Assembly: GCA_040755035.1 (NCBI GenBank)
Contig: JBFMBU010000082.1
Coordinates: 25,464-89,463, forward strand
DNA length: 64,000 nucleotides
DNA from: Thermodesulfobacteriota bacterium
Lineage (GTDB): Bacteria > Desulfobacterota > RBG-13-43-22
Direction of reading: 5' to 3'
The translations under genes were made by a program, and so were the position numbers. Shown piece after piece: positions 3,084 through 50,490 of the stretch; position 1 is the first letter of the stretch; the number at the start of each line of letters is the position of its first letter. The notes under the pieces were generated by a model that was not told the DNA's origin, did not search any database, and was given only the letters and a program-made list of their open reading frames with translations.

Positions 3084-3397
3084 GGTTTAACCTCTCCTTT
3101 TCATCTTTTAATAAAAAAATAAAACCGGTCGTTTTATTTTTTGGGACATTCTAAAATTTACCGGCCTGGAGTGTCAAGGAGAAAAATGAGGGTTTCCTTT
3201 TTTCCCTTGACCGAGCTCGGCGATTTTTCTATACATTTACCTTTCATTCCATTTATAATAAAAATAATAAGTTTCAAAAATTGGTTTTTTGCCGATTAGA
3301 AAGGGTAAAAAACCGCGCCAACCGGTAATAGCGGAAGGGTCAGCCGACCATTTTCCGGTTGAAAACTCTGAAAAAAGAAAAGACAATGAGGTGGAAA

Positions 3398-4369
3398 ATG
3401 ACAAAGGAAAAATTTGGGATAAAGTATGTGGGAATGGTGACCATTCTATTGTTTTTAGTAACCCTGGTTGCCGGTGAGGTCTGGGCCAGGGCCGGAGGAG
3501 GACGGTCCGGCGGCTTCCGGGGCAGTCGCTCCTTTTCGGCGCCAAGAACCCAGTCCCCGGGGACCTCTCCCTTTCAGCGTAGTGTTCAGCCTCCTCCCGG
3601 GAATATGGCCAATCAACCCTATTCCCAACCCGGCGGAAGTCCCTTTCTGAGGGGTCTGGCCGGCGGGTTAGCCGGGGGCTTCCTGGGAAGTCTGCTGTTT
3701 GGCGGTATGGGCCGGGCTTCAGGAGCCGGTTGGGGATCCGGCGGATCGGGAATAGGATTTTTGGAAATTATCCTGATTTTGGCCGTGGTTTTTTTTCTTT
3801 TCCGGTTTATCCGCAACAGAAAAAAAAACTCCCTTAACCAGAACCCGTATTCCGATTATGCACCCCCTCCCTATCAACAAGCAGGGGCTTTTTCCCCCAA
3901 CGTATCCGCAGGGGATCAGGAGGTGGAAACCGGTATAGCCCACATTCAATCAATGGACCAAACCTTCGATTCCACTGCTTTCAAAGATTGGGTACAGGAT
4001 GTCTTTTTCAAGATCCAAGCCGCCTGGGGAAATCAGGATTTAGGGCCGGTCAGTCCCCTTTTAACCACAGAAATGCAGGAGATTTTTTCCAAGGACCTGG
4101 AAGGGCAGAAAGCGGCCAATCGCATCAACCGACTGGAAAATATCGCTGTCCGTTCAGTAGAGATCACCGAAGCCTGGCAGGAAGAGGGTAATGACTTTAT
4201 CACGGTCCTATTTTACGCCAATCTGGTGGACTACACCCTTGATAAAACCAGCGGCGCCGTACTTTCCGGAAGCAAAACCGATCCGGTCAAATTCAGGGAA
4301 TTTTGGACCTTCTTGCGACCTGTCGGCAAAGGCCCCTGGAAATTAAGCGCCATTCAGCAGGAGAACTGA
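3398..4369 (+). CDS. Tim44-like domain membrane protein
   Basis: N-terminal transmembrane segment, a Gly/Ser/Pro low-complexity linker, a second transmembrane segment, then a C-terminal domain resembling the Tim44-like fold. Start chosen at ATG 3398, which is preceded by GAGGTG; the ORF could also start at 3359 or 3386. Confidence 0.55.
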   Translation: MTKEKFGIKYVGMVTILLFLVTLVAGEVWARAGGGRSGGFRGSRSFSAPRTQSPGTSPFQRSVQPPPGNMANQPYSQPGGSPFLRGLAGGLAGGFLGSLLFGGMGRASGAGWGSGGSGIGFLEIILILAVVFFLFRFIRNRKKNSLNQNPYSDYAPPPYQQAGAFSPNVSAGDQEVETGIAHIQSMDQTFDSTAFKDWVQDVFFKIQAAWGNQDLGPVSPLLTTEMQEIFSKDLEGQKAANRINRLENIAVRSVEITEAWQEEGNDFITVLFYANLVDYTLDKTSGAVLSGSKTDPVKFREFWTFLRPVGKGPWKLSAIQQEN

Positions 4370-19571: not shown

Positions 19572-20987
19572 TTGGAAGCCATGCCCCAGACCAATCAAAT
19601 CCTGATCGTTGAAGACGACCCTTTGGAGGCCGACCTTTTATCCCAGGAGCTGGCCGATCATGGATACAAAACCCGCTGGGCCAAAGACGGAGCGGAAGCC
19701 TTGGAACAGATCAAGTATTCTCCACCGGATCTGGTTCTCCTGGATATCATGCTGCCCGGTATGGATGGTTTTGAGGTGGTTAAAGAGATTAAGTCCCATC
19801 CCAAAACCCGCACCATCCCGGTCATAATGGTCACTGCCCTGGCCGATCTGGATCAACAGGTGAAAGGTCTGGATTCAGGGGCTGATGATTATATTACCAA
19901 ACCCTTTAAGCCCTTTGAATTACTGGCCCGGGTGCGTTCCATGCTTCGTATCCGGAGGATGTATCTGGATCTGTCTTCCACCAAAGCCAGGTTGAAGGAG
20001 TCCCGGGAAGAAAACGATTTTCTTAGGAAAGAGATCCAGGGGAAATATACCTTTGAAAACCTGATAGGCAGCAGTCCGGCGATTAAAAAGGTTTATTATT
20101 TAATGGAAAAGGCCATTGAAAGCCCGGTGTCGGTATTGATTCTTGGGGAAACCGGAACGGGCAAAGAATTGGTGGCCCGTTCCATTCATTATAACAGCAC
20201 CAGGAAGGACAAACCCTTTGTCGCCCAGAATTGTGCGGCCCTGCCGGAAACCCTGCTGGAGAGCGAACTTTTCGGTCATAAGAAAGGGGCTTTTACCGGG
20301 GCGGTGGTAGATAAAAAGGGCCTTTTCGAAACAGCTCATAAAGGAACCATCTTTTTAGATGAAATCGGCGACACCCCTCCGGCCTTACAAGTGCGATTGT
20401 TAAGAGTGTTGCAGGAGGGAGAAATCCGTCGGGTAGGGGAGGTGCATCCCATTAAGGTTGATGTCCGGGTGATTACCGCCACCCACCAGGACTTAAAAAC
20501 CGAGATTGAGAGCGGCAGATTTCGGGAAGACCTATATTACCGGATTCAGACTTTTCCCATTCCCCTGCCCCCTTTGAGGGAACGAAACGGGGATATCCCT
20601 TTACTGGTGGAGCATTTCCTGAACAAATACTGTCAGCGTATGGAAAAACAATGCGGGATAAGGCCGGACTGCCTGGACCTGCTGGACCGCTATCCCTTTC
20701 CGGGTAATATCCGGGAGCTGGAAAATGAAATCGCCCGGGCTATGACCCTGGTCTCTGACCAGGGTACCATCACCCCTGATTTTTTTTCCGATTCCATTCG
20801 AAACGCCGCCCATCTCCCTCCGAACAGCAAACAGGGTACCGTTCAGGCCGTAACCGACCGCCTGGAACGTTCCTTGGTACAAAAAGCCCTGGAAGAATCC
20901 GGTGGCAACAGGACACGGGCCGCTGAAAAACTGGGGTTGAGCCGCCGGGGCTTGCTGAATAAAATTCGAAGATTTGGCTTAGAGTGA
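19572..20987 (+). CDS. Sigma-54-dependent response regulator (NtrC family)
   Basis: Receiver domain + AAA+ domain (GETGTGKE, GAFTGA motif, ...) + C-terminal Fis-type helix-turn-helix. Confidence 0.9.
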   Translation: MEAMPQTNQILIVEDDPLEADLLSQELADHGYKTRWAKDGAEALEQIKYSPPDLVLLDIMLPGMDGFEVVKEIKSHPKTRTIPVIMVTALADLDQQVKGLDSGADDYITKPFKPFELLARVRSMLRIRRMYLDLSSTKARLKESREENDFLRKEIQGKYTFENLIGSSPAIKKVYYLMEKAIESPVSVLILGETGTGKELVARSIHYNSTRKDKPFVAQNCAALPETLLESELFGHKKGAFTGAVVDKKGLFETAHKGTIFLDEIGDTPPALQVRLLRVLQEGEIRRVGEVHPIKVDVRVITATHQDLKTEIESGRFREDLYYRIQTFPIPLPPLRERNGDIPLLVEHFLNKYCQRMEKQCGIRPDCLDLLDRYPFPGNIRELENEIARAMTLVSDQGTITPDFFSDSIRNAAHLPPNSKQGTVQAVTDRLERSLVQKALEESGGNRTRAAEKLGLSRRGLLNKIRRFGLE

Positions 20988-21598
20988 TGAAATATCCTTA
21001 TGCCGGTGTCATTTTAGCCGGGGGGTTGAATCGACGAATGGATGGCCAGAACAAGGCCTTCCTTTCCGTGGGAGACCAATCCATCATCGGCAGATTAGTA
21101 GAGCTGTTTGAGGGGTTATTCGAACAGGTGATCCTGGTCAGCAACCAGCCTCTGGATTTTGTCGCCTGGGACTGCCTGATTGTTAAGGACCTGCTTCATA
21201 CCAGAGGTTCTCTGACCGGGGTCCATACCGGGTTATTCTACACCCGGTCTTCCCATGCCTTTGTCACCGCTTGTGATATGCCTTTTATAAAACCGGAAAT
21301 AATCCGTCTGCTTCTGGATGACCTGGATCCCAAATGGGACGTGGTCGTCCCGGTGACCAGCGAAGGCTATCAACCCCTTTGCGCCCTCTATTCCAAAAGA
21401 TGTCTAAAGGTCATCGAGGATCAGGTAAGACAAGGAAATATGAAGATTTCCAGGCTGTATTCCAAAGTCAAAATCAGGAAAATCCCCGAAGAACCGTTGC
21501 GGAAAGTGGATCCAGAATTGATCTCCTTTTTCAATATCAACACCCAGGAGGATTTAACCCTGTCTCAGAAGATGGAGGGCTTCATTTCCAATGTCTGA
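20984..21598 (+). CDS. mobA: Molybdenum cofactor guanylyltransferase MobA
   Basis: N-terminal GVILAGGLNRRMDG motif and MobA-family length. The start codon overlaps the regulator gene's stop codon. Confidence 0.8.
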   Translation: MMKYPYAGVILAGGLNRRMDGQNKAFLSVGDQSIIGRLVELFEGLFEQVILVSNQPLDFVAWDCLIVKDLLHTRGSLTGVHTGLFYTRSSHAFVTACDMPFIKPEIIRLLLDDLDPKWDVVVPVTSEGYQPLCALYSKRCLKVIEDQVRQGNMKISRLYSKVKIRKIPEEPLRKVDPELISFFNINTQEDLTLSQKMEGFISNV

Positions 21599-22385
21599 CC
21601 ATGATCACAGGTTTGAAACCAGAAAAGTTTTCCGATTGACCGACCAGGGTTTGACAGAGCAGGAACGGCCCATTGTCCGCGAGGTCCCTTTGACCATCTA
21701 TTTAAATGACCAGGAAATCGTTACCCTGTTGTGTCTCGGAGACTATCAGGAGAGTCTGGCTATCGGTTTTTTAAAGTCCGAAGGGCTGATCAGTCAGGTC
21801 GATGATCTGAAATCCGTTTTTGTAGATACGGAAAATAATCTGGTCCGGGTGGAGGTAAGCGAAGACACCAGCCTGACGGAAAAGCTTTTTTCCCGCCGGA
21901 CCGTAACCTCCGGCTGCGGCAAGGGGACAACCTTCTATAATGCCCTGGATACACTGATAATGAGCCGGGTCGATTCCCGGCTGGTCATCACTGTCAATCA
22001 GGTCTTTCATTTAATGCGCCGCTTGGTGGAAGACTCAGAGCTTTACAAGATCACTGGCGGGACTCACAACTCGGCCCTGGCCACTGTGGATGACCTGGTC
22101 CTCTTTCGAACGGATATCGGCCGGCACAATGCTGTGGATAAAATTTACGGGGAATGCTTTCTAAAGAAAAAAGCTTTATTGGACAAGGTTCTGATCACCA
22201 CCGGCCGGATCACCTCTGAAATCCTGATCAAGACCGGCCGCATGGGGATTCCGGTTTTAATTTCCCGCTCAGCCGCCACCTCTCTGGCCATTTCCCTGGC
22301 CGAACAGATTGGGGTCACCCTCATCGGCTATGTCCGGGGGAGGAATCTGGTGGTCTATACGGGGAGGGAGCGGGTAGTCGGCTAA
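21591..22385 (+). CDS. fdhD: Formate dehydrogenase accessory sulfurtransferase FdhD
   Basis: 264 aa with an FdhD-family core (TSGCGKGTT). Overlaps mobA by 8 bp. Confidence 0.8.
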   Translation: MSDHDHRFETRKVFRLTDQGLTEQERPIVREVPLTIYLNDQEIVTLLCLGDYQESLAIGFLKSEGLISQVDDLKSVFVDTENNLVRVEVSEDTSLTEKLFSRRTVTSGCGKGTTFYNALDTLIMSRVDSRLVITVNQVFHLMRRLVEDSELYKITGGTHNSALATVDDLVLFRTDIGRHNAVDKIYGECFLKKKALLDKVLITTGRITSEILIKTGRMGIPVLISRSAATSLAISLAEQIGVTLIGYVRGRNLVVYTGRERVVG

Positions 22386-22500
22386 GCAGGATAAAATCAC
22401 GTTAGAAGTTAAGGGTTCAGAGTGATATTTCAAAGGAGCTACCGATAATACCACTACCTTTGATTTCCTTTCTTCGCCTGATATTAAGGGAAAACCTTCC

Positions 22501-24090
22501 TCATTCTCCCAGAAGCAGCCAGACAGAGGGGAGGATGTTGAGTTGTGCTTCGAAGGCCCCAATATCCCAGCCACCCCCTTGAGGACGAGAGCGGCCGGTA
22601 TTGTCCCGGCGCAGGTCGATACCATAACGTGACTGAAAGTAGGAGAAAGCCGTTTCCTCTACCGGACTGGCCTTTCCAACCGCCAGGCTGGAGGCCTTTA
22701 TCTGAAAATTTGAACCTGGTGTCCGAAAGGTTTTATCCGCTGCCTCAATTTGCCGGTGAGGTTCGTTGCCGGGATCATAGGAGGACAGGCTGAACAGATT
22801 ATAATCATGGGTAAATGACGGATCGACCTTCAGGGCCGGGCAATCATTGTGGGTTGAATTTTTGGAAGAAAAAATATTGTTGGAAACCCTCAAAGGTCCG
22901 CCGGCGCCATAGGGTATCCCTACAAACAGATCCGCATTATAAACCGTATTGAATAGGGCGCTAAAACCCCCCGAATTTCGGTATCCCAAGGCCCCGGCAT
23001 TATAATTGCTGCAGGCGCCGTCAGGGTATTCCACGTTATAGATTACGTTCCCGATAGCATACCAGGGGCCTCCTCCTCCCGCCGCAGCGCCGACAATATG
23101 GATTCCTACATTGCAGTCTTTTATGGTATTGGAGATAAACCAAATTTGTTTGGCATCATACTGACCCCCCAGCCCCATTCCCCGGCTATAGGTTGACGCG
23201 GTCTTCATATGATAAACCAGGTTTTGGGAAAAAATTACATCCGAGGCGTTTTTGGTCCAAAAACCGCACTGGTAATTTTCGTAGGCTGTGTTTCTTCCCA
23301 AATAAATTCTATTAATCTGCTCCGGCGTATTGTTGTAGTCCCCTACCTGGACGCCGTCGCCGTGGCAATGATAAAAGGAAGAATCGACAATCCAGACATC
23401 GGCCGCCGGGGCAAAGACCTTGATTCCATGACGATCAATATCATTGGCACCCGTATATTGCCAGTTTCCCATTTGGGAAACGGTATTGTTGTAGTAAACA
23501 ATAAAGGAGCCATTGATGCCGAACCCGGCCCCGTTGGCCGTGTCAAAGGGGTTGGCGTAGAGGCAATTACGGAGGAACAGGTGGTTTCCCGAAAGGAGGA
23601 CTCCATCCCGTGAATTGTAATTCCAGCTTAGATTGTCCAGGATGATATAAGCACCGGTGATGGTCCAATAATTGGTCAGAACCGGTTTGTTGTCCGGGTC
23701 ATATCCCATGATCCAAATCGGGTTTTCGGAAGTAGCGCTCCAGGCAACATTTTTTGACCCGGATATAATCCCGTTAAGCACGATTATTGAACCGGCCGCC
23801 GGGGAGGAGGGCAGGGAACAACGGGGTGCGCTCGGGTAACCATGGGTTCTGGCATCCGAACATCCCGAAGGATCCACGAAATAAAGACCGGACTGTTCGG
23901 AGGTCCAGGGATTGGGCAAAGGAGGGCGGGAGAGGTTTAATTCCGAAGGCCAGCCGGGCTTCGGGATGCCAAGGGGAGGCTGCCAGGGATCAGCACAGGC
24001 CTTTTCCAAGGATAGCAAGCCTTCCATAACGAGTAATAGACCGATCATTCCAAGGCTGAAAAATAAACGCAGGGTCCTGCCCAAGGTCAT
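22501..24090 (-). CDS. Secreted right-handed parallel beta-helix protein with C-terminal GAFE-type (choice-of-anchor-Q-like) motif
   Basis: Signal peptide. Repetitive, Gly/Asn-rich beta-helix turns. C-terminal GGWDIGAFE motif. Confidence 0.6.
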   Translation of the reverse strand: MTLGRTLRLFFSLGMIGLLLVMEGLLSLEKACADPWQPPLGIPKPGWPSELNLSRPPLPNPWTSEQSGLYFVDPSGCSDARTHGYPSAPRCSLPSSPAAGSIIVLNGIISGSKNVAWSATSENPIWIMGYDPDNKPVLTNYWTITGAYIILDNLSWNYNSRDGVLLSGNHLFLRNCLYANPFDTANGAGFGINGSFIVYYNNTVSQMGNWQYTGANDIDRHGIKVFAPAADVWIVDSSFYHCHGDGVQVGDYNNTPEQINRIYLGRNTAYENYQCGFWTKNASDVIFSQNLVYHMKTASTYSRGMGLGGQYDAKQIWFISNTIKDCNVGIHIVGAAAGGGGPWYAIGNVIYNVEYPDGACSNYNAGALGYRNSGGFSALFNTVYNADLFVGIPYGAGGPLRVSNNIFSSKNSTHNDCPALKVDPSFTHDYNLFSLSSYDPGNEPHRQIEAADKTFRTPGSNFQIKASSLAVGKASPVEETAFSYFQSRYGIDLRRDNTGRSRPQGGGWDIGAFEAQLNILPSVWLLLGE

Positions 24091-24441
24091 GGCCGAATTC
24101 CTCCTGGTTCGGATATTTTTCTTCTTGCGAAAGGCCGCTTCAAATCGTCCCCCGCTATACAGCGAATGGTTGAATAATATCCATGAAAAAGGGAAAAGCA
24201 GAAGAAAAGATTGATAAGGCTTTTAGAGACAAGTAGAGTATATAAAAGGTGATGGATCCGGTCAAGGTGAAAAATAGGATAAACAGAAAATTCCTCGGCC
24301 AAATAGCGCGCCTTTAAACGATATGGTCTTTTTTATGATGATGTGCTATTTTTCTGAGCAAGAAGGGAAACAACGGCAGCACTCGCTCTTAAAGGACCGC
24401 CTCTTTCAGGAATCCCTAACTACCCTAAGAATGGTTTATTA

Positions 24442-25587
24442 ATGACCCTGTATCTGGATAATGCCGCCTCGTCACATCCGAAACCGGAAACCGTTTATCA
24501 AGCGGTGAATGAAGCCCTCCGGAACATCGGGGCCAATCCGGGACGGTCCGGTCATCGCCTGGCCGTTAAGGCCGATCAGGTCATCGCCCGGACCCGCAAG
24601 ACCTTGGCCCGCCTCTTCGATATCGAGGACTCGAGGCGGATTGTCTTTACGGCCAATGCCACCGAGGCCATTAATCTGGGTTTGAAAGGCCTGCTCAAAA
24701 CCGGGGACCATGTCATTACTTCCTCTATGGAACACAATTCGGTGGTCCGACCTCTTAGGTTTCTGGAGACTCAGGGGGTTGAGGTTACGTTTGTTCTCTG
24801 TTCTTCTCTGGGATTGATTGAAGTCGAAGAAATTGAAAAGGCCGTTAGAAAAAACACCCGATTGATTGTTCTAACTCACGCTTCCAATGTAACCGGAGGG
24901 CTCATGCCCATTGAAGAAGTGGCTGCCTTATCCCGGAGACAGGGGCTCCTGTTCATGGTGGATGCGGCCCAGACCGCCGGCCTGGTCCCCCTTTCCGTAA
25001 ACAGGATGGGGATAGACCTTCTTGCCGCTCCGGGCCATAAGGGATTACTGGGTCCTCAAGGCACGGGGTTCCTTTATATCGGACCCAATATTTTCCTTCG
25101 TCCCCTGAAGGAAGGCGGGACCGGAAGTCAATCGGAACTGGAGACCCAGCCGGATTTTCTGCCCGACCGGATGGAATCAGGAACCCTGAATACCCCGGGC
25201 CTGGCCGGACTGGGAGCCGGGGTGGAATTTATCCTTAGCCAGGGCGTCGAAAAAATCCGGGAAAAGGAAATCACCCTGAGCAGAATGGTTTGGGAGGAAC
25301 TGAACAAGAACCCTAAAGTTCAACTCTACGGTCCGGAAAGGGCTGAAGAGAGGACCTCTCCCCTTTCCTTCAATATCCGGGGACTGAACCCAAGCGCAGC
25401 GGCTTCCATCCTGGACACGGCCTATGACATCGCCGTCCGGGCCGGTCTGCACTGCGCCGCTCTGGCCCACCGCACCCTGGGGACACTCCCGGAAGGCACC
25501 ATCCGCGTCAGCCCGGGTTTTTTTAATTCGGAAGAGGATATTGAATTTTTCCTTGAGGCACTTACAGCGATCTGTAAAAAAGTGTAA
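24442..25587 (+). CDS. Class V aminotransferase / cysteine desulfurase family (NifS-like)
   Basis: Class V aminotransferase fold with a PLP-lysine region (GHKGLLGPQGTGFLY). 381 aa. Confidence 0.75.
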   Translation: MTLYLDNAASSHPKPETVYQAVNEALRNIGANPGRSGHRLAVKADQVIARTRKTLARLFDIEDSRRIVFTANATEAINLGLKGLLKTGDHVITSSMEHNSVVRPLRFLETQGVEVTFVLCSSLGLIEVEEIEKAVRKNTRLIVLTHASNVTGGLMPIEEVAALSRRQGLLFMVDAAQTAGLVPLSVNRMGIDLLAAPGHKGLLGPQGTGFLYIGPNIFLRPLKEGGTGSQSELETQPDFLPDRMESGTLNTPGLAGLGAGVEFILSQGVEKIREKEITLSRMVWEELNKNPKVQLYGPERAEERTSPLSFNIRGLNPSAAASILDTAYDIAVRAGLHCAALAHRTLGTLPEGTIRVSPGFFNSEEDIEFFLEALTAICKKV

Positions 25588-47687: not shown

Positions 47688-47717
47688 CTTCAAACCTTTA
47701 TTGAGAGGCCCCAATTG

Positions 47718-48074
47718 GTCATTCCGGCGGAAGCCGGAATCCAGGAGAAAAAAACAGTGTTTAAAATACCGGTTGTTTATATCCTGGCAAACAAAAAAAA
47801 TGGTACCCTATATACCGGTGTGACTTCAGATCTTGTTAGAAGGATCTGGGAGCACAAACACAATCTCGTAAAAGGATTTACTGAAAGGTATAAAATTCAT
47901 ACCCTTGTTTGGTATGAAGTTCATGATAATATGGAGTCGGCCATTGAGAGGGAAAAAAGGATAAAAGAATGGAAACGGAATTGGAAACTGGAATTGATAG
48001 AGAAAAACAATCCGGAATGGTGTGATTTGTCCGATACAATTATATGACTGGATTCCGGCTTTCGCCGGAATGAC
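47718..48074 (+). mobile_element. GIY-YIG cassette bounded by 27-bp inverted repeats, inserted between hdrA and hdrC
   Basis: The left inverted repeat is 47718-47744 (gtcattccggcggaagccggaatccag). The right inverted repeat is 48048-48074 (ctggattccggctttcgccggaatgac). The cassette starts 31 bp after the hdrA stop codon and ends 49 bp before the hdrC ATG. Confidence 0.6.
47757..48047 (+). CDS. GIY-YIG nuclease family protein (COG2827/UPF0213-like)
   Basis: GTG start. GIY-YIG core (VYILANKKNGTLYTGVTSDLVRRIWEHK). Embedded in a 357-bp cassette bounded by 27-bp inverted repeats. Confidence 0.7.
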   Translation: MFKIPVVYILANKKNGTLYTGVTSDLVRRIWEHKHNLVKGFTERYKIHTLVWYEVHDNMESAIEREKRIKEWKRNWKLELIEKNNPEWCDLSDTII

Positions 48075-48706: not shown

Positions 48707-49615
48707 GTGAGTTTCATGAAATTTGCATTTTTTTTAGGATGTGTCATCCCGGTCAAGTATCCGGGATTTGAAAAGGCCACACGGGAAGTCATGCAGGCCC
48801 TGGATATCGAATTGGTGGACCTGCCTTTTTCCTGCTGCCCGGCACCGACCAATATGAAGCTGGCCCATTACGACACCTGGCTGGCCCTGGGGGCCCGCAA
48901 CCTTTGTCTGGCGGAAGAGGCCGGCCTGCCGATCCTGGCCATGTGCAATGGTTGCATTAACACCCTCAAAGAAGTCAATCTGACCTTGAAAGAAGATAGT
49001 CGAAGGCGGGAACAGGTCAACCAGGCCCTGGAAGGAACCGGTCACCGCTTTAAGGGGACCATTGAAGTCAAACACCTCTTGGATGTTTTATATAAGGATA
49101 TCGGACTGGAGCGGATTGCCGAAAAGGTCCGCCGTCCCTTAGAGGGCATCAGGATCGGCTGCCATTACGGCTGTCACCTCTATCGTCCTCCCCGGCTAAT
49201 GTATCCCGACGAGTTGTCTGAAGCGGCCAGTTATGTCCCGGTGAGCATGGACCAGATCCTTGAGGTCCTGGGGGCCCATCCGACCCAGTATTCCAGGAAG
49301 TTCCTCTGTTGCGGATCGGCACTGGGGACCAATATCGACGCCCAGGCGGCCAATGAAATCACCCGGGAAAAACTCCAGCACATGAAAAAACACCGCATCG
49401 AGGCCGTTTCCGTGGCCTGCCCTTCCTGTTTTACCCAATTCGACCGGGGGCAGATGATGCTGGAAAGAAAGTATCATGACGGATTCAACCTGCCGACCCT
49501 TTATATCGCCCAGCTTTTAGGGCTGGCCTTCGGTTTAGAAAAGGCCAATCTGGGGCTGGGAGACCACCGTATCAGCCTCCAGCCTATGTTGGACCGGATC
49601 GCGGGGGCTTCTTGA
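48707..49615 (+). CDS. hdrB: Heterodisulfide reductase subunit B (CCG-domain protein)
   Basis: Two cysteine-rich CCG-type domains (CCP...CNGC; CCG...CPSC). Confidence 0.85.
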   Translation: MSFMKFAFFLGCVIPVKYPGFEKATREVMQALDIELVDLPFSCCPAPTNMKLAHYDTWLALGARNLCLAEEAGLPILAMCNGCINTLKEVNLTLKEDSRRREQVNQALEGTGHRFKGTIEVKHLLDVLYKDIGLERIAEKVRRPLEGIRIGCHYGCHLYRPPRLMYPDELSEAASYVPVSMDQILEVLGAHPTQYSRKFLCCGSALGTNIDAQAANEITREKLQHMKKHRIEAVSVACPSCFTQFDRGQMMLERKYHDGFNLPTLYIAQLLGLAFGLEKANLGLGDHRISLQPMLDRIAGAS

Positions 49616-49640
49616 CAAAAGGCAACTTGATATCTATAAT
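49612..49640 (+). promoter_or_regulatory. Consensus sigma-70 promoter TTGACA-N17-TATAAT
   Basis: Perfect -35 and -10 hexamers with a 17-nt spacer, about 130 nt upstream of the HesB-like gene. The -35 hexamer overlaps the hdrB stop codon. Confidence 0.6.
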
Positions 49641-49770
49641 ATAAACCTAAGCGAAAAGATGAGATTTTTTCTCTCACTTTCGATACCCACAATTTCAAAA
49701 AGGTTTGGTTAGTATTTATCATTAAATTTTTGGAAACGAAACAGAGAAACTTTTCTGGAAAGGAAACACC

Positions 49771-50088
49771 ATGTTAACTGTTACGGAAGCGGCCCAGACG
49801 GCCATTAAGGACCATTTTGAAAAACAAAATCTGAAATCTCCCATTCGGATATTCTTAAGCCAAGGGGGCTGATCAGGGCCTTCACTGGCCCTGGCTCTGG
49901 ATGAGTCAAAACAAACCGATGATGTTTATGATATCAATGGAATCACCTATCTGATCGACAAGACCCTGGTTGAGCAGACCAAGGAAGTCAAAGTCGATTT
50001 TGTCAATTATAACGGCCGTTCCGGATTTTCCGTGTCTTCGGCCATAAGTTTGGGTGGAGGCTCCTGCGGCACTTCCTGCAGCTGTTAA
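49771..50088 (+). CDS. HesB/IscA-like Fe-S assembly protein, candidate selenoprotein (in-frame UGA at 49870-49872)
   Basis: Not in the ORF track. Translation is MLTVTEAAQTAIKDHFEKQNLKSPIRIFLSQGG[U]SGPSLALALDE...GGGSCGTSCSC. It aligns to IscA (LRLGVRTSGCSGMAY...CGCG) with the UGA exactly at the conserved first Cys. A hairpin (cagggcc ttcact ggccctg) lies 3 nt after the UGA. The gene has its own consensus promoter, an AGGAAA ribosome-binding site, and a terminator. Confidence 0.6.
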
Positions 50089-50164
50089 AAAATAAAACGT
50101 TCGGCGTTAAGCGTTCGTCGTTCGGCGAAAAACATCTAACAATTTTTGGATCATATTTAAAAAA

Positions 50165-50194
50165 GGGCGGGAGAATATCCCGCCCTTTTTTTTC
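50165..50194. terminator. Bidirectional rho-independent terminator
   Basis: gggcggg agaatat cccgccc hairpin, with an A-run upstream and a T9 run downstream. Confidence 0.7.
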
Positions 50195-50361
50195 AGACGA
50201 CGTAATAATTGCATTTAGGTAAACACCAGGCTTTGCCGGGGGACTCCCAAAGTTTGACTTTTAAGGGAATAGGGGGTTGGTAATATGTGGAAAAAGAGTA
50301 TCAATAAATTTTCCAATACCTGGTCAGAGATATTTTTTGAGAATGAATCAACCTCTGAAAC

Positions 50362-50490
50362 GTCATTCCGGTCGGTCGGTTCCACCGACCTCCATTTTCA
50401 GACCTCCGAAGGAGGACGAGCGAAAGCCGGAATCCAGGAACTTTTCCGAACTTTGAAAAAACCTGGACCCCGGCTTTCGCCGGGGAGACG
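50362..50490. repeat. Non-autonomous MITE related to the GIY-YIG cassette ends
   Basis: Termini gtcattccggtcggtcgg ... ccggctttcgccgggga. Shares a 38-bp core (agacctccgaaggagg.cgagcgaaa..cggaatccag) with the copy at 57443. Confidence 0.65.

Follow-up and report, generated by a model that had tools for sequence, protein, structure and literature searches.

The locus examined here lies in a 64-kb stretch of DNA (64,000 nucleotides; hereafter the window) and raises the question of whether a TGA that interrupts an IscA-like reading frame marks a dead gene, a genuine stop or a codon for selenocysteine (Sec). Read from the sequence, the frame starts with ATG at 49771, runs through an in-frame TGA at 49870-49872 (codon 34) and stops with TAA at 50086-50088. 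With the TGA decoded, the product is 105 aa long (MLTVTEAAQ...SQGG*SGPSL...GGGSCGTSCSC; in letters, MLTVTEAAQTAIKDHFEKQNLKSPIRIFLSQGG-U-SGPSLALALDESK...GGGSCGTSCSC), and codons 34-37 translate as U-S-G-P. An earlier note on this DNA had reported that the gene is absent from the ORF track, that codon 34 is a TGA at these coordinates and that read-through yields a 105-aa protein. Each of these statements held, and the mechanical ORF list contains only a 33-aa stub at 49771..49872; ORF callers end a frame at UGA and so miss the gene. Very probably the locus encodes a HesB-like selenoprotein of the NCBIfam subfamily IscA_HesB_Se, from a gene that is intact and transcribed on its own. The gene, referred to below as hesB, and its UGA are as follows.

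49771 to 50088, plus strand: HesB-like (IscA_HesB_Se) selenoprotein gene, 105 codons plus TAA, supported by translation, NF038090, PF01521 and dN/dS.
49870 to 49872, plus strand: UGA codon 34, predicted to be read as selenocysteine (motif U-S-G-P), at the first cluster-ligand Cys position of A-type carriers.

Family membership was assessed with the stop replaced by Cys in the product. The protein matched the NCBIfam model NF038090 (IscA_HesB_Se) with 132.8 bits against a cutoff of 85, its residues 1-101 falling on profile positions 1-101 of 101, and Pfam PF01521 (Fe-S_biosyn) with 34.9 bits against a gathering score of 26.3 over residues 2-92. The older model TIGR01911 (HesB_rel_seleno) gave 48.1 bits, under its cutoff of 66.35, and the equivalog models for IscA, SufA and ErpA fell far under theirs (TIGR02011, 37.5 versus 150.6; TIGR01997, 42.5 versus 136.2; NF010147, 36.8 versus 117). 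The score above the NF038090 cutoff together with that below the TIGR01911 cutoff therefore indicates the subfamily that keeps the Cys-rich C-terminal tail (GGGSCGTSCSC). The best matches among solved structures, all over the full length, were Aquifex Aq_1857 (1NWB, E 1.1e-9), H. influenzae HI1723 and E. coli IscA (1S98/1R94), and codon 34 fell on the GGCSG/SGCSG cysteine in each alignment to solved IscA-type proteins. At least 90% of 42 more distant homologues had Cys at the codon-34 column. The whole-length alignment with IscA/HesB A-type carriers claimed earlier was thus borne out by NF038090, PF01521 and 1NWB, and the placement of the UGA at the first conserved Cys of the family by the alignments to 1NWB and E. 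coli IscA and by the Cys of the distant homologues.

The claim that the C-terminal Cys-rich ligand motif is retained was correct in part: GGGSCGTSCSC is present, but the tail cysteines C99, C103 and C105 form a variant C-x3-C-x-C and are not in the canonical C-G-C register. In the HMM alignments C99 coincides with the second Cys of C-G-C in IscA, and relatives have three tail Cys with variable spacing.

To follow codon 34 across the family, homologues were gathered by two collection scans, of genomes and of metagenomes, which gave 88 loci with 89 homologous copies. The genome-scan loci belonged to uncultured Deltaproteobacteria and Thermodesulfobacteriota and shared 50-90% aa identity, the orthologue L001 from MGQB01 (RBG_13_43_22) being 90% identical. 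Codon 34 was TGA in 86 of the 89 copies and TGC or TGT in 3, forming a Sec/Cys pair, and the recurrence of the same TGA at this frequency is far beyond chance. Among the window and six close relatives (L001-L006; 21 pairs), dN/dS was 0.11 for codons 1-33 versus 0.08 for codons 35-105, with a pS of ~0.55, a level at which synonymous sites are near saturation. Because dN/dS stays this low 3' of the UGA while synonymous change is near-saturated, we conclude that the downstream region is translated in frame.

These data bear directly on the possibility of a decayed pseudogene, in which a Cys codon (TGC or TGT) became TGA and the gene died. Such decay would agree with the stub seen by ORF callers and with the annotation of homologues by public pipelines as C-terminal fragments only, but the retention of the TGA through many lineages and purifying selection downstream of it in effect refute this reading; the gene also has no other lesions and retains a promoter, a ribosome-binding site and a terminator. 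We consider its probability to be close to nil. The earlier note had argued for a live gene, a view sustained by the 86 TGA-containing copies, by purifying selection on both sides of the codon and by the expression signals. It had also named the pattern that would speak against it, a TGA unique to this copy with TGC or TGT in its relatives and further lesions; the relatives were found to share the TGA.

Two loci of the homologue set had unusual structures. In the metagenomic contig L031 (3001-3754) two HesB-like genes lie in tandem, one a Cys form (TGC at 3100) and the other a Sec form (TGA at 3524); the Cys copy reads GCG-CTG-GAT-GAG, without the invariant hairpin sequence GCT-CTG-GAT-GAG described below. 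The orthologue in MAG JACQYK01 (L007, 3001-3294) diverges past residue 75 and ends early, its TGA and SECIS being intact; this stems from a deletion or frameshift, or from faulty assembly.

Public gene calls of the homologues (P0001-P0013 and P0016-P0021) follow two patterns: ENA gives Trp at the Sec position, and JGI gives 65-68-aa C-terminal fragments named IscA. Both are annotation artefacts. The W in the ENA calls of P0001-P0006 and P0011 is what would be expected if TGA encoded Trp or Gly (genetic codes 4 or 25), so that residue 34 would not be Sec. Against this, TGA terminates 16 of the 41 family-supported ORFs in the window and is thus a normal stop, which excludes a TGA-sense code, and the codon-34 column of the homologues holds Cys and never a sense-encoded Trp or Gly. 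The G+C content of 49% and the deltaproteobacterial gene content also argue against a reassigned code, and the W is attributable to gene calling. An alternative code therefore has virtually no chance of being correct, and the reading of codon 34 as Sec is retained.

We next considered the RNA structure downstream of the UGA, using an alignment of 85 distinct Sec-form sequences that is gap-free around this codon. RNAalifold found a single consensus helix across the 85 Sec forms, a hairpin at 49893-49907 whose stem starts 20 nt and whose loop lies 25 nt from the UGA.

49893 to 49907, plus strand: conserved SECIS core (candidate), GGCUC / loop UGGAU / GAGUC, the sole RNAalifold consensus helix.
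49893 to 49897, plus strand: GGCUC of the SECIS core.
49898 to 49902, plus strand: loop UGGAU of the SECIS core.
49903 to 49907, plus strand: GAGUC of the SECIS core.

In this hairpin 99.5% of the alignment cells pair, versus 5.6-47.8% when the 3' arm is slid, and TGGCTCTGGA-GAG is invariant in the 85 Sec forms. Three codons show the constraint when Sec and Cys forms are set side by side.

Codon Ala+8: GCT in 85/85 Sec forms; among 12 Cys forms GCG in 6, GCA in 2, GCC in 2, GCT in 1 and Gly (GGC) in 1.
Codon Leu+9: CTG in 85/85 Sec forms; among 12 Cys forms CTT in 7 and CTG in 5.
Codon Glu+11: GAG in 85/85 Sec forms; among 12 Cys forms GAA in 7 and GAG in 5.

Adjacent Gly, Pro and Ser codons of the Sec forms use all four synonyms, and none of the 12 Cys-form sequences contains the full invariant hairpin motif. 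Neither compensatory changes nor covariation was detected in the helix among the 85 Sec forms because the helix never varies; the case for a SECIS element rests on Sec-specific invariance and not on covariation.

The bacterial SECIS model specifies a loop of 3-9 nt, a stem of at least 4 bp, a G in the first two loop positions, a distance of 16-37 nt from the UGA and an MFE of at most -7.5 kcal/mol (PMC13188914). The hairpin at 49893-49907 agrees with this model in having a 5-nt loop, a 5-bp stem, a G at loop position 2 followed by another G, and 25-nt spacing. The fold from the UGA to +43 has an energy of -19.3 kcal/mol in the window, and in every one of the 85 Sec forms the energy is at most -7.5 kcal/mol. 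The 15-nt hairpin by itself reaches just -4.9 kcal/mol in the window because GAGUC gives a G-U pair, and -7.6 kcal/mol in 51 of the 85 Sec forms. Rfam gave no match at gathering thresholds across the whole window, and at E values up to 10 it returned only terminator-driven noise at ~50100-50230 and nothing on the SECIS. Together, the comparative data indicate that the hairpin at 49893-49907 is a conserved, Sec-specific element that probably acts as the SECIS and would be bound by SelB.

A different hairpin had been proposed in the earlier note as a possible SECIS element.

49874 to 49893, plus strand: 7-bp hairpin CAGGGCC-UUCACU-GGCCCUG, a lineage-specific spacer helix, -14.2 kcal/mol.

This hairpin exists, but it starts 1 nt past the UGA rather than the 3 nt reported, and its proposed role was not upheld. 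Pairing was found in 50.6% of cells across the 85 Sec forms versus 61.7% at a +1 slide, so the helix is not conserved and does no better than slid controls. Its loop begins 8 nt past the UGA with no G at position 1 or 2, breaking both the spacing and the loop-G rules of the bSECIS model. From the decoding of E. coli fdhF, a helix starting 1 nt past the A-site codon would melt inside the mRNA channel, and one starting at +21 sits within reach of SelB. Some spacer helix forms in most family members, in a register that is not conserved.

The perfect promoter, AGGAAA ribosome-binding site and strong terminator described for the gene were all recovered, at the following positions.

49612 to 49640, plus strand: sigma-70-type promoter TTGACA-N17-TATAAT, directly after the hdrB stop, with a 12/12 consensus match.
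49760 to 49766, plus strand: ribosome-binding site AAGGAAA, 4-6 nt ahead of the ATG, read from the sequence.
50160 to 50193, plus strand: intrinsic terminator GGGCGGGA-GAAUA-UCCCGCCC followed by U8, with A5 on the other flank, -22.2 kcal/mol.

The terminator has a G+C-rich stem and a z score of -5.43, with 0 of 200 shuffles folding as well, and was not picked up by a simple consensus terminator scan. Comparable signals occur in the close relatives: TTGACA-N17-TAnnnT is found at the equivalent place in L001, L002, L004, L005 and L006, GAAAGGAAA lies ahead of the ATG in L001-L007, and a G+C-rich hairpin followed by a T run lies 3' of the gene in L001, L002, L003, L005 and L006, none being evident in the stretch of L004 that was read. 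Since hesB has its own promoter and terminator, matched in most close relatives checked, it forms a separate transcription unit. Because the A5 flanks the stem opposite the U8, the terminator may be bidirectional and possibly serves both hesB (plus strand) and the convergent serA (minus strand).

Upstream of hesB the window encodes EF-G, a 2-oxoacid:ferredoxin oxidoreductase, an HdrA2-like protein (NF040770, 1247 bits), a GIY-YIG ORF, HdrC and HdrB, and serA lies 3' in convergent orientation; no isc or suf genes adjoin hesB, whose neighbours are hdrA2-hdrC-hdrB and serA. The order hdrA2-hdrC-hdrB-hesB is common to L001-L007 and L010, and the convergent serA is present in L001-L007, the L010 stretch ending within the gene, with serA beyond its end. 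Gene neighbourhood is not conserved across the family. More distant Sec forms lack the hdr-hesB-serA order; upstream of them are Macro (23/56) and Ham1 (14/56) genes, and downstream genes include a nitroreductase (10/53). The idea that a conserved operon might point to the function was rejected: because the order is limited to the close relatives L001-L007 and L010, it reflects lineage synteny and not a functional operon. Cys-form genes follow either a [NiFe]-hydrogenase with HycI or MTHFR, lie between MvhD and an HdrA-like gene, or precede HypA/HypB; these settings hint weakly at a connection with the maturation of Fe-S or Ni-Fe enzymes.

Several features of these neighbourhoods were noted in passing. 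Between hdrA2 and hdrC sits the GIY-YIG ORF (47715-48047; PF01541), flanked by a 27-nt palindromic element in two inverted copies: GTCATTCCGGCGGAAGCCGGAATCCAG occupies 47718-47744, and the reverse complement of this sequence occupies 48048-48074. The 12-nt 3' end of the element is matched a third time at 50426-50437. The ORF is absent at the equivalent site in L001 and L002, and similar copies of the element occur 3' of hesB in L001, L002 and L006. The ORF and the element resemble either a small mobile insertion or an element of the REP type. In L099 (573-3321) and L100, a Cys-form HesB-like gene has as neighbours a 129-aa ORF with HdrA-type FAD and ferredoxin matches, an MvhD/FlpD ORF and an 806-aa HdrA-like ORF beside MTHFR; the 129-aa ORF might be a piece of a UGA-split (Sec) HdrA or MvhD gene.

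The window was also searched for components of Sec decoding. No selA, selB or selD was present among the ~50 ORFs scanned with Pfam or NCBIfam in the 64-kb window, no tRNA-Sec or tRNA gene of any kind was found in the window or in 26 related loci, and three scans of the window for TGA-split ORFs gave no further convincing candidate. Because neither sel genes nor tRNA-Sec lie within the window, we infer the Sec competence of the organism from the comparative evidence. A separate segment of the window (20984-25587) contains a MobA-like gene (20984-21598), FdhD (21591-22385) and a class-V aminotransferase/cysteine-desulfurase-like gene (24442-25587). Such genes are typical accessories of molybdopterin formate dehydrogenases, which in Deltaproteobacteria are usually selenoproteins; no fdhA was found in the window.

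The lack of Sec machinery within the window would suit an explanation in which ribosomes pass the UGA by read-through, or by suppression with a near-cognate or Cys-charged tRNA, or in which translation stops at codon 34 and the C-terminal 65-68 aa are started independently, as the JGI calls of the homologues would have it. Neither version gives a role to an invariant hairpin that is specific to Sec forms and lies at SECIS distance. The first 33 codons, moreover, are under equal purifying selection and correspond in alignment to the N-terminal portion of the IscA fold, and neither a ribosome-binding site nor a conserved ATG precedes the putative internal start. We therefore regard read-through or an internal start as very unlikely, and Sec insertion as the reading to be preferred.

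For a HesB-like selenoprotein, expression would proceed as follows. Transcription would run from the TTGACA-17-TATAAT promoter to the terminator at 50160-50193, and translation would begin at ATG 49771. When UGA-34 occupies the A site, the hairpin at 49893-49907 would be positioned just outside the mRNA channel of the ribosome, where it may recruit SelB-GTP-Sec-tRNA(Sec), so that selenocysteine would be inserted and translation would continue to the TAA at 50086. The product is predicted to adopt the A-type Fe-S carrier fold, in which Sec34 would replace the first of three cluster or iron ligands and the remaining ligands would come from C99, C103 and C105 in the flexible C-terminal tail. Such a protein most likely binds and passes on an Fe-S cluster or iron, and the recipients may include Fe-S enzymes, for instance the Hdr-like complex encoded nearby.

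A more specific role can be envisaged, in which the family serves specifically to mature or repair Fe-S centres of the Hdr or hydrogenase type, Sec being a cluster ligand. This idea draws on the fixed position of the Sec form immediately 3' of hdrA2-hdrC-hdrB in this uncultured deltaproteobacterial lineage and on Cys forms elsewhere beside MvhD/HdrA, MTHFR, [NiFe]-hydrogenase/HycI or HypA/HypB. A second reading along these lines is that the invariant 14-nt SECIS core (UGGCUCUGGAYGAG), common to all 85 Sec forms, represents a distinct SelB-recognition class; if so, the 14-nt core could serve as a search signature. We consider these readings improbable, and the less specific assignment as a HesB-like selenoprotein is the one carried forward.

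Anaerobic Deltaproteobacteria are rich in selenoproteins, and the HesB-like proteins are a standard family among these. The gene is a routine member of a selenoprotein family known for about twenty years and adds nothing biologically unexpected; it represents an ordinary annotation gap and no discovery. Its practical value lies in annotation, the gene being missed by ORF callers yet recognised by the curated model NF038090. New here are the reassignment of the SECIS to another hairpin and a simple nucleotide signature, TGA-N19-TGGCTCTGGAYGAG, by which Sec forms of this family can be recognised.

Comparison with known systems places the locus among described selenoproteins. HesB-like selenoproteins, of which eleven members were known in 2006, are on record for many Deltaproteobacteria, among them Syntrophobacter fumaroxidans, Syntrophus aciditrophicus, Desulfovibrio vulgaris and Geobacter sulfurreducens (PMC1794560), and their motif is UxGP (PMC13188914). 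The statement that they constitute a described prokaryotic selenoprotein family was thus confirmed by these reports (PMC1794560, PMC13188914) and by the score above the NF038090 cutoff. The present protein shares with the family the small IscA/HesB fold, Sec in UxGP at the first ligand-Cys position, the existence of Cys homologues and an anaerobic deltaproteobacterial host; it differs in nothing essential, passing NF038090 and failing TIGR01911. In M. maripaludis, which provides the only such precedent, selenium incorporation into a HesB-like selenoprotein (MMJJ_08070) was confirmed by mutagenesis and 75Se labelling, its function being unknown there (PMC11097638). That protein, likened here by description, has the same family name and is a Sec-containing IscA relative, but it is archaeal and uses an archaeal SECIS in the 3'-UTR, whereas the present gene has an in-frame hairpin of bacterial type.

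Compared with IscA/SufA/ErpA (1S98/1R94, 1NWB), the protein has full-length similarity, its UGA on the GGCSG/SGCSG Cys and Cys in the C-terminal tail; it differs in having Sec in place of Cys and C-x3-C-x-C in place of C-G-C, and in being encoded outside an isc/suf operon. The hairpin agrees with the bacterial SECIS consensus (the bSECISearch model, with the E. coli fdhF SECIS as prototype) in being a small structure just 3' of the UGA within the coding sequence and in its 5-nt loop, its 5-bp stem, the G-G at loop positions 2-3 and the 25 nt between UGA and loop. It differs in that its sequence is unrelated to fdhF, no bulged U is evident in the hairpin at 49893-49907 and the element is invariant in sequence across the family.
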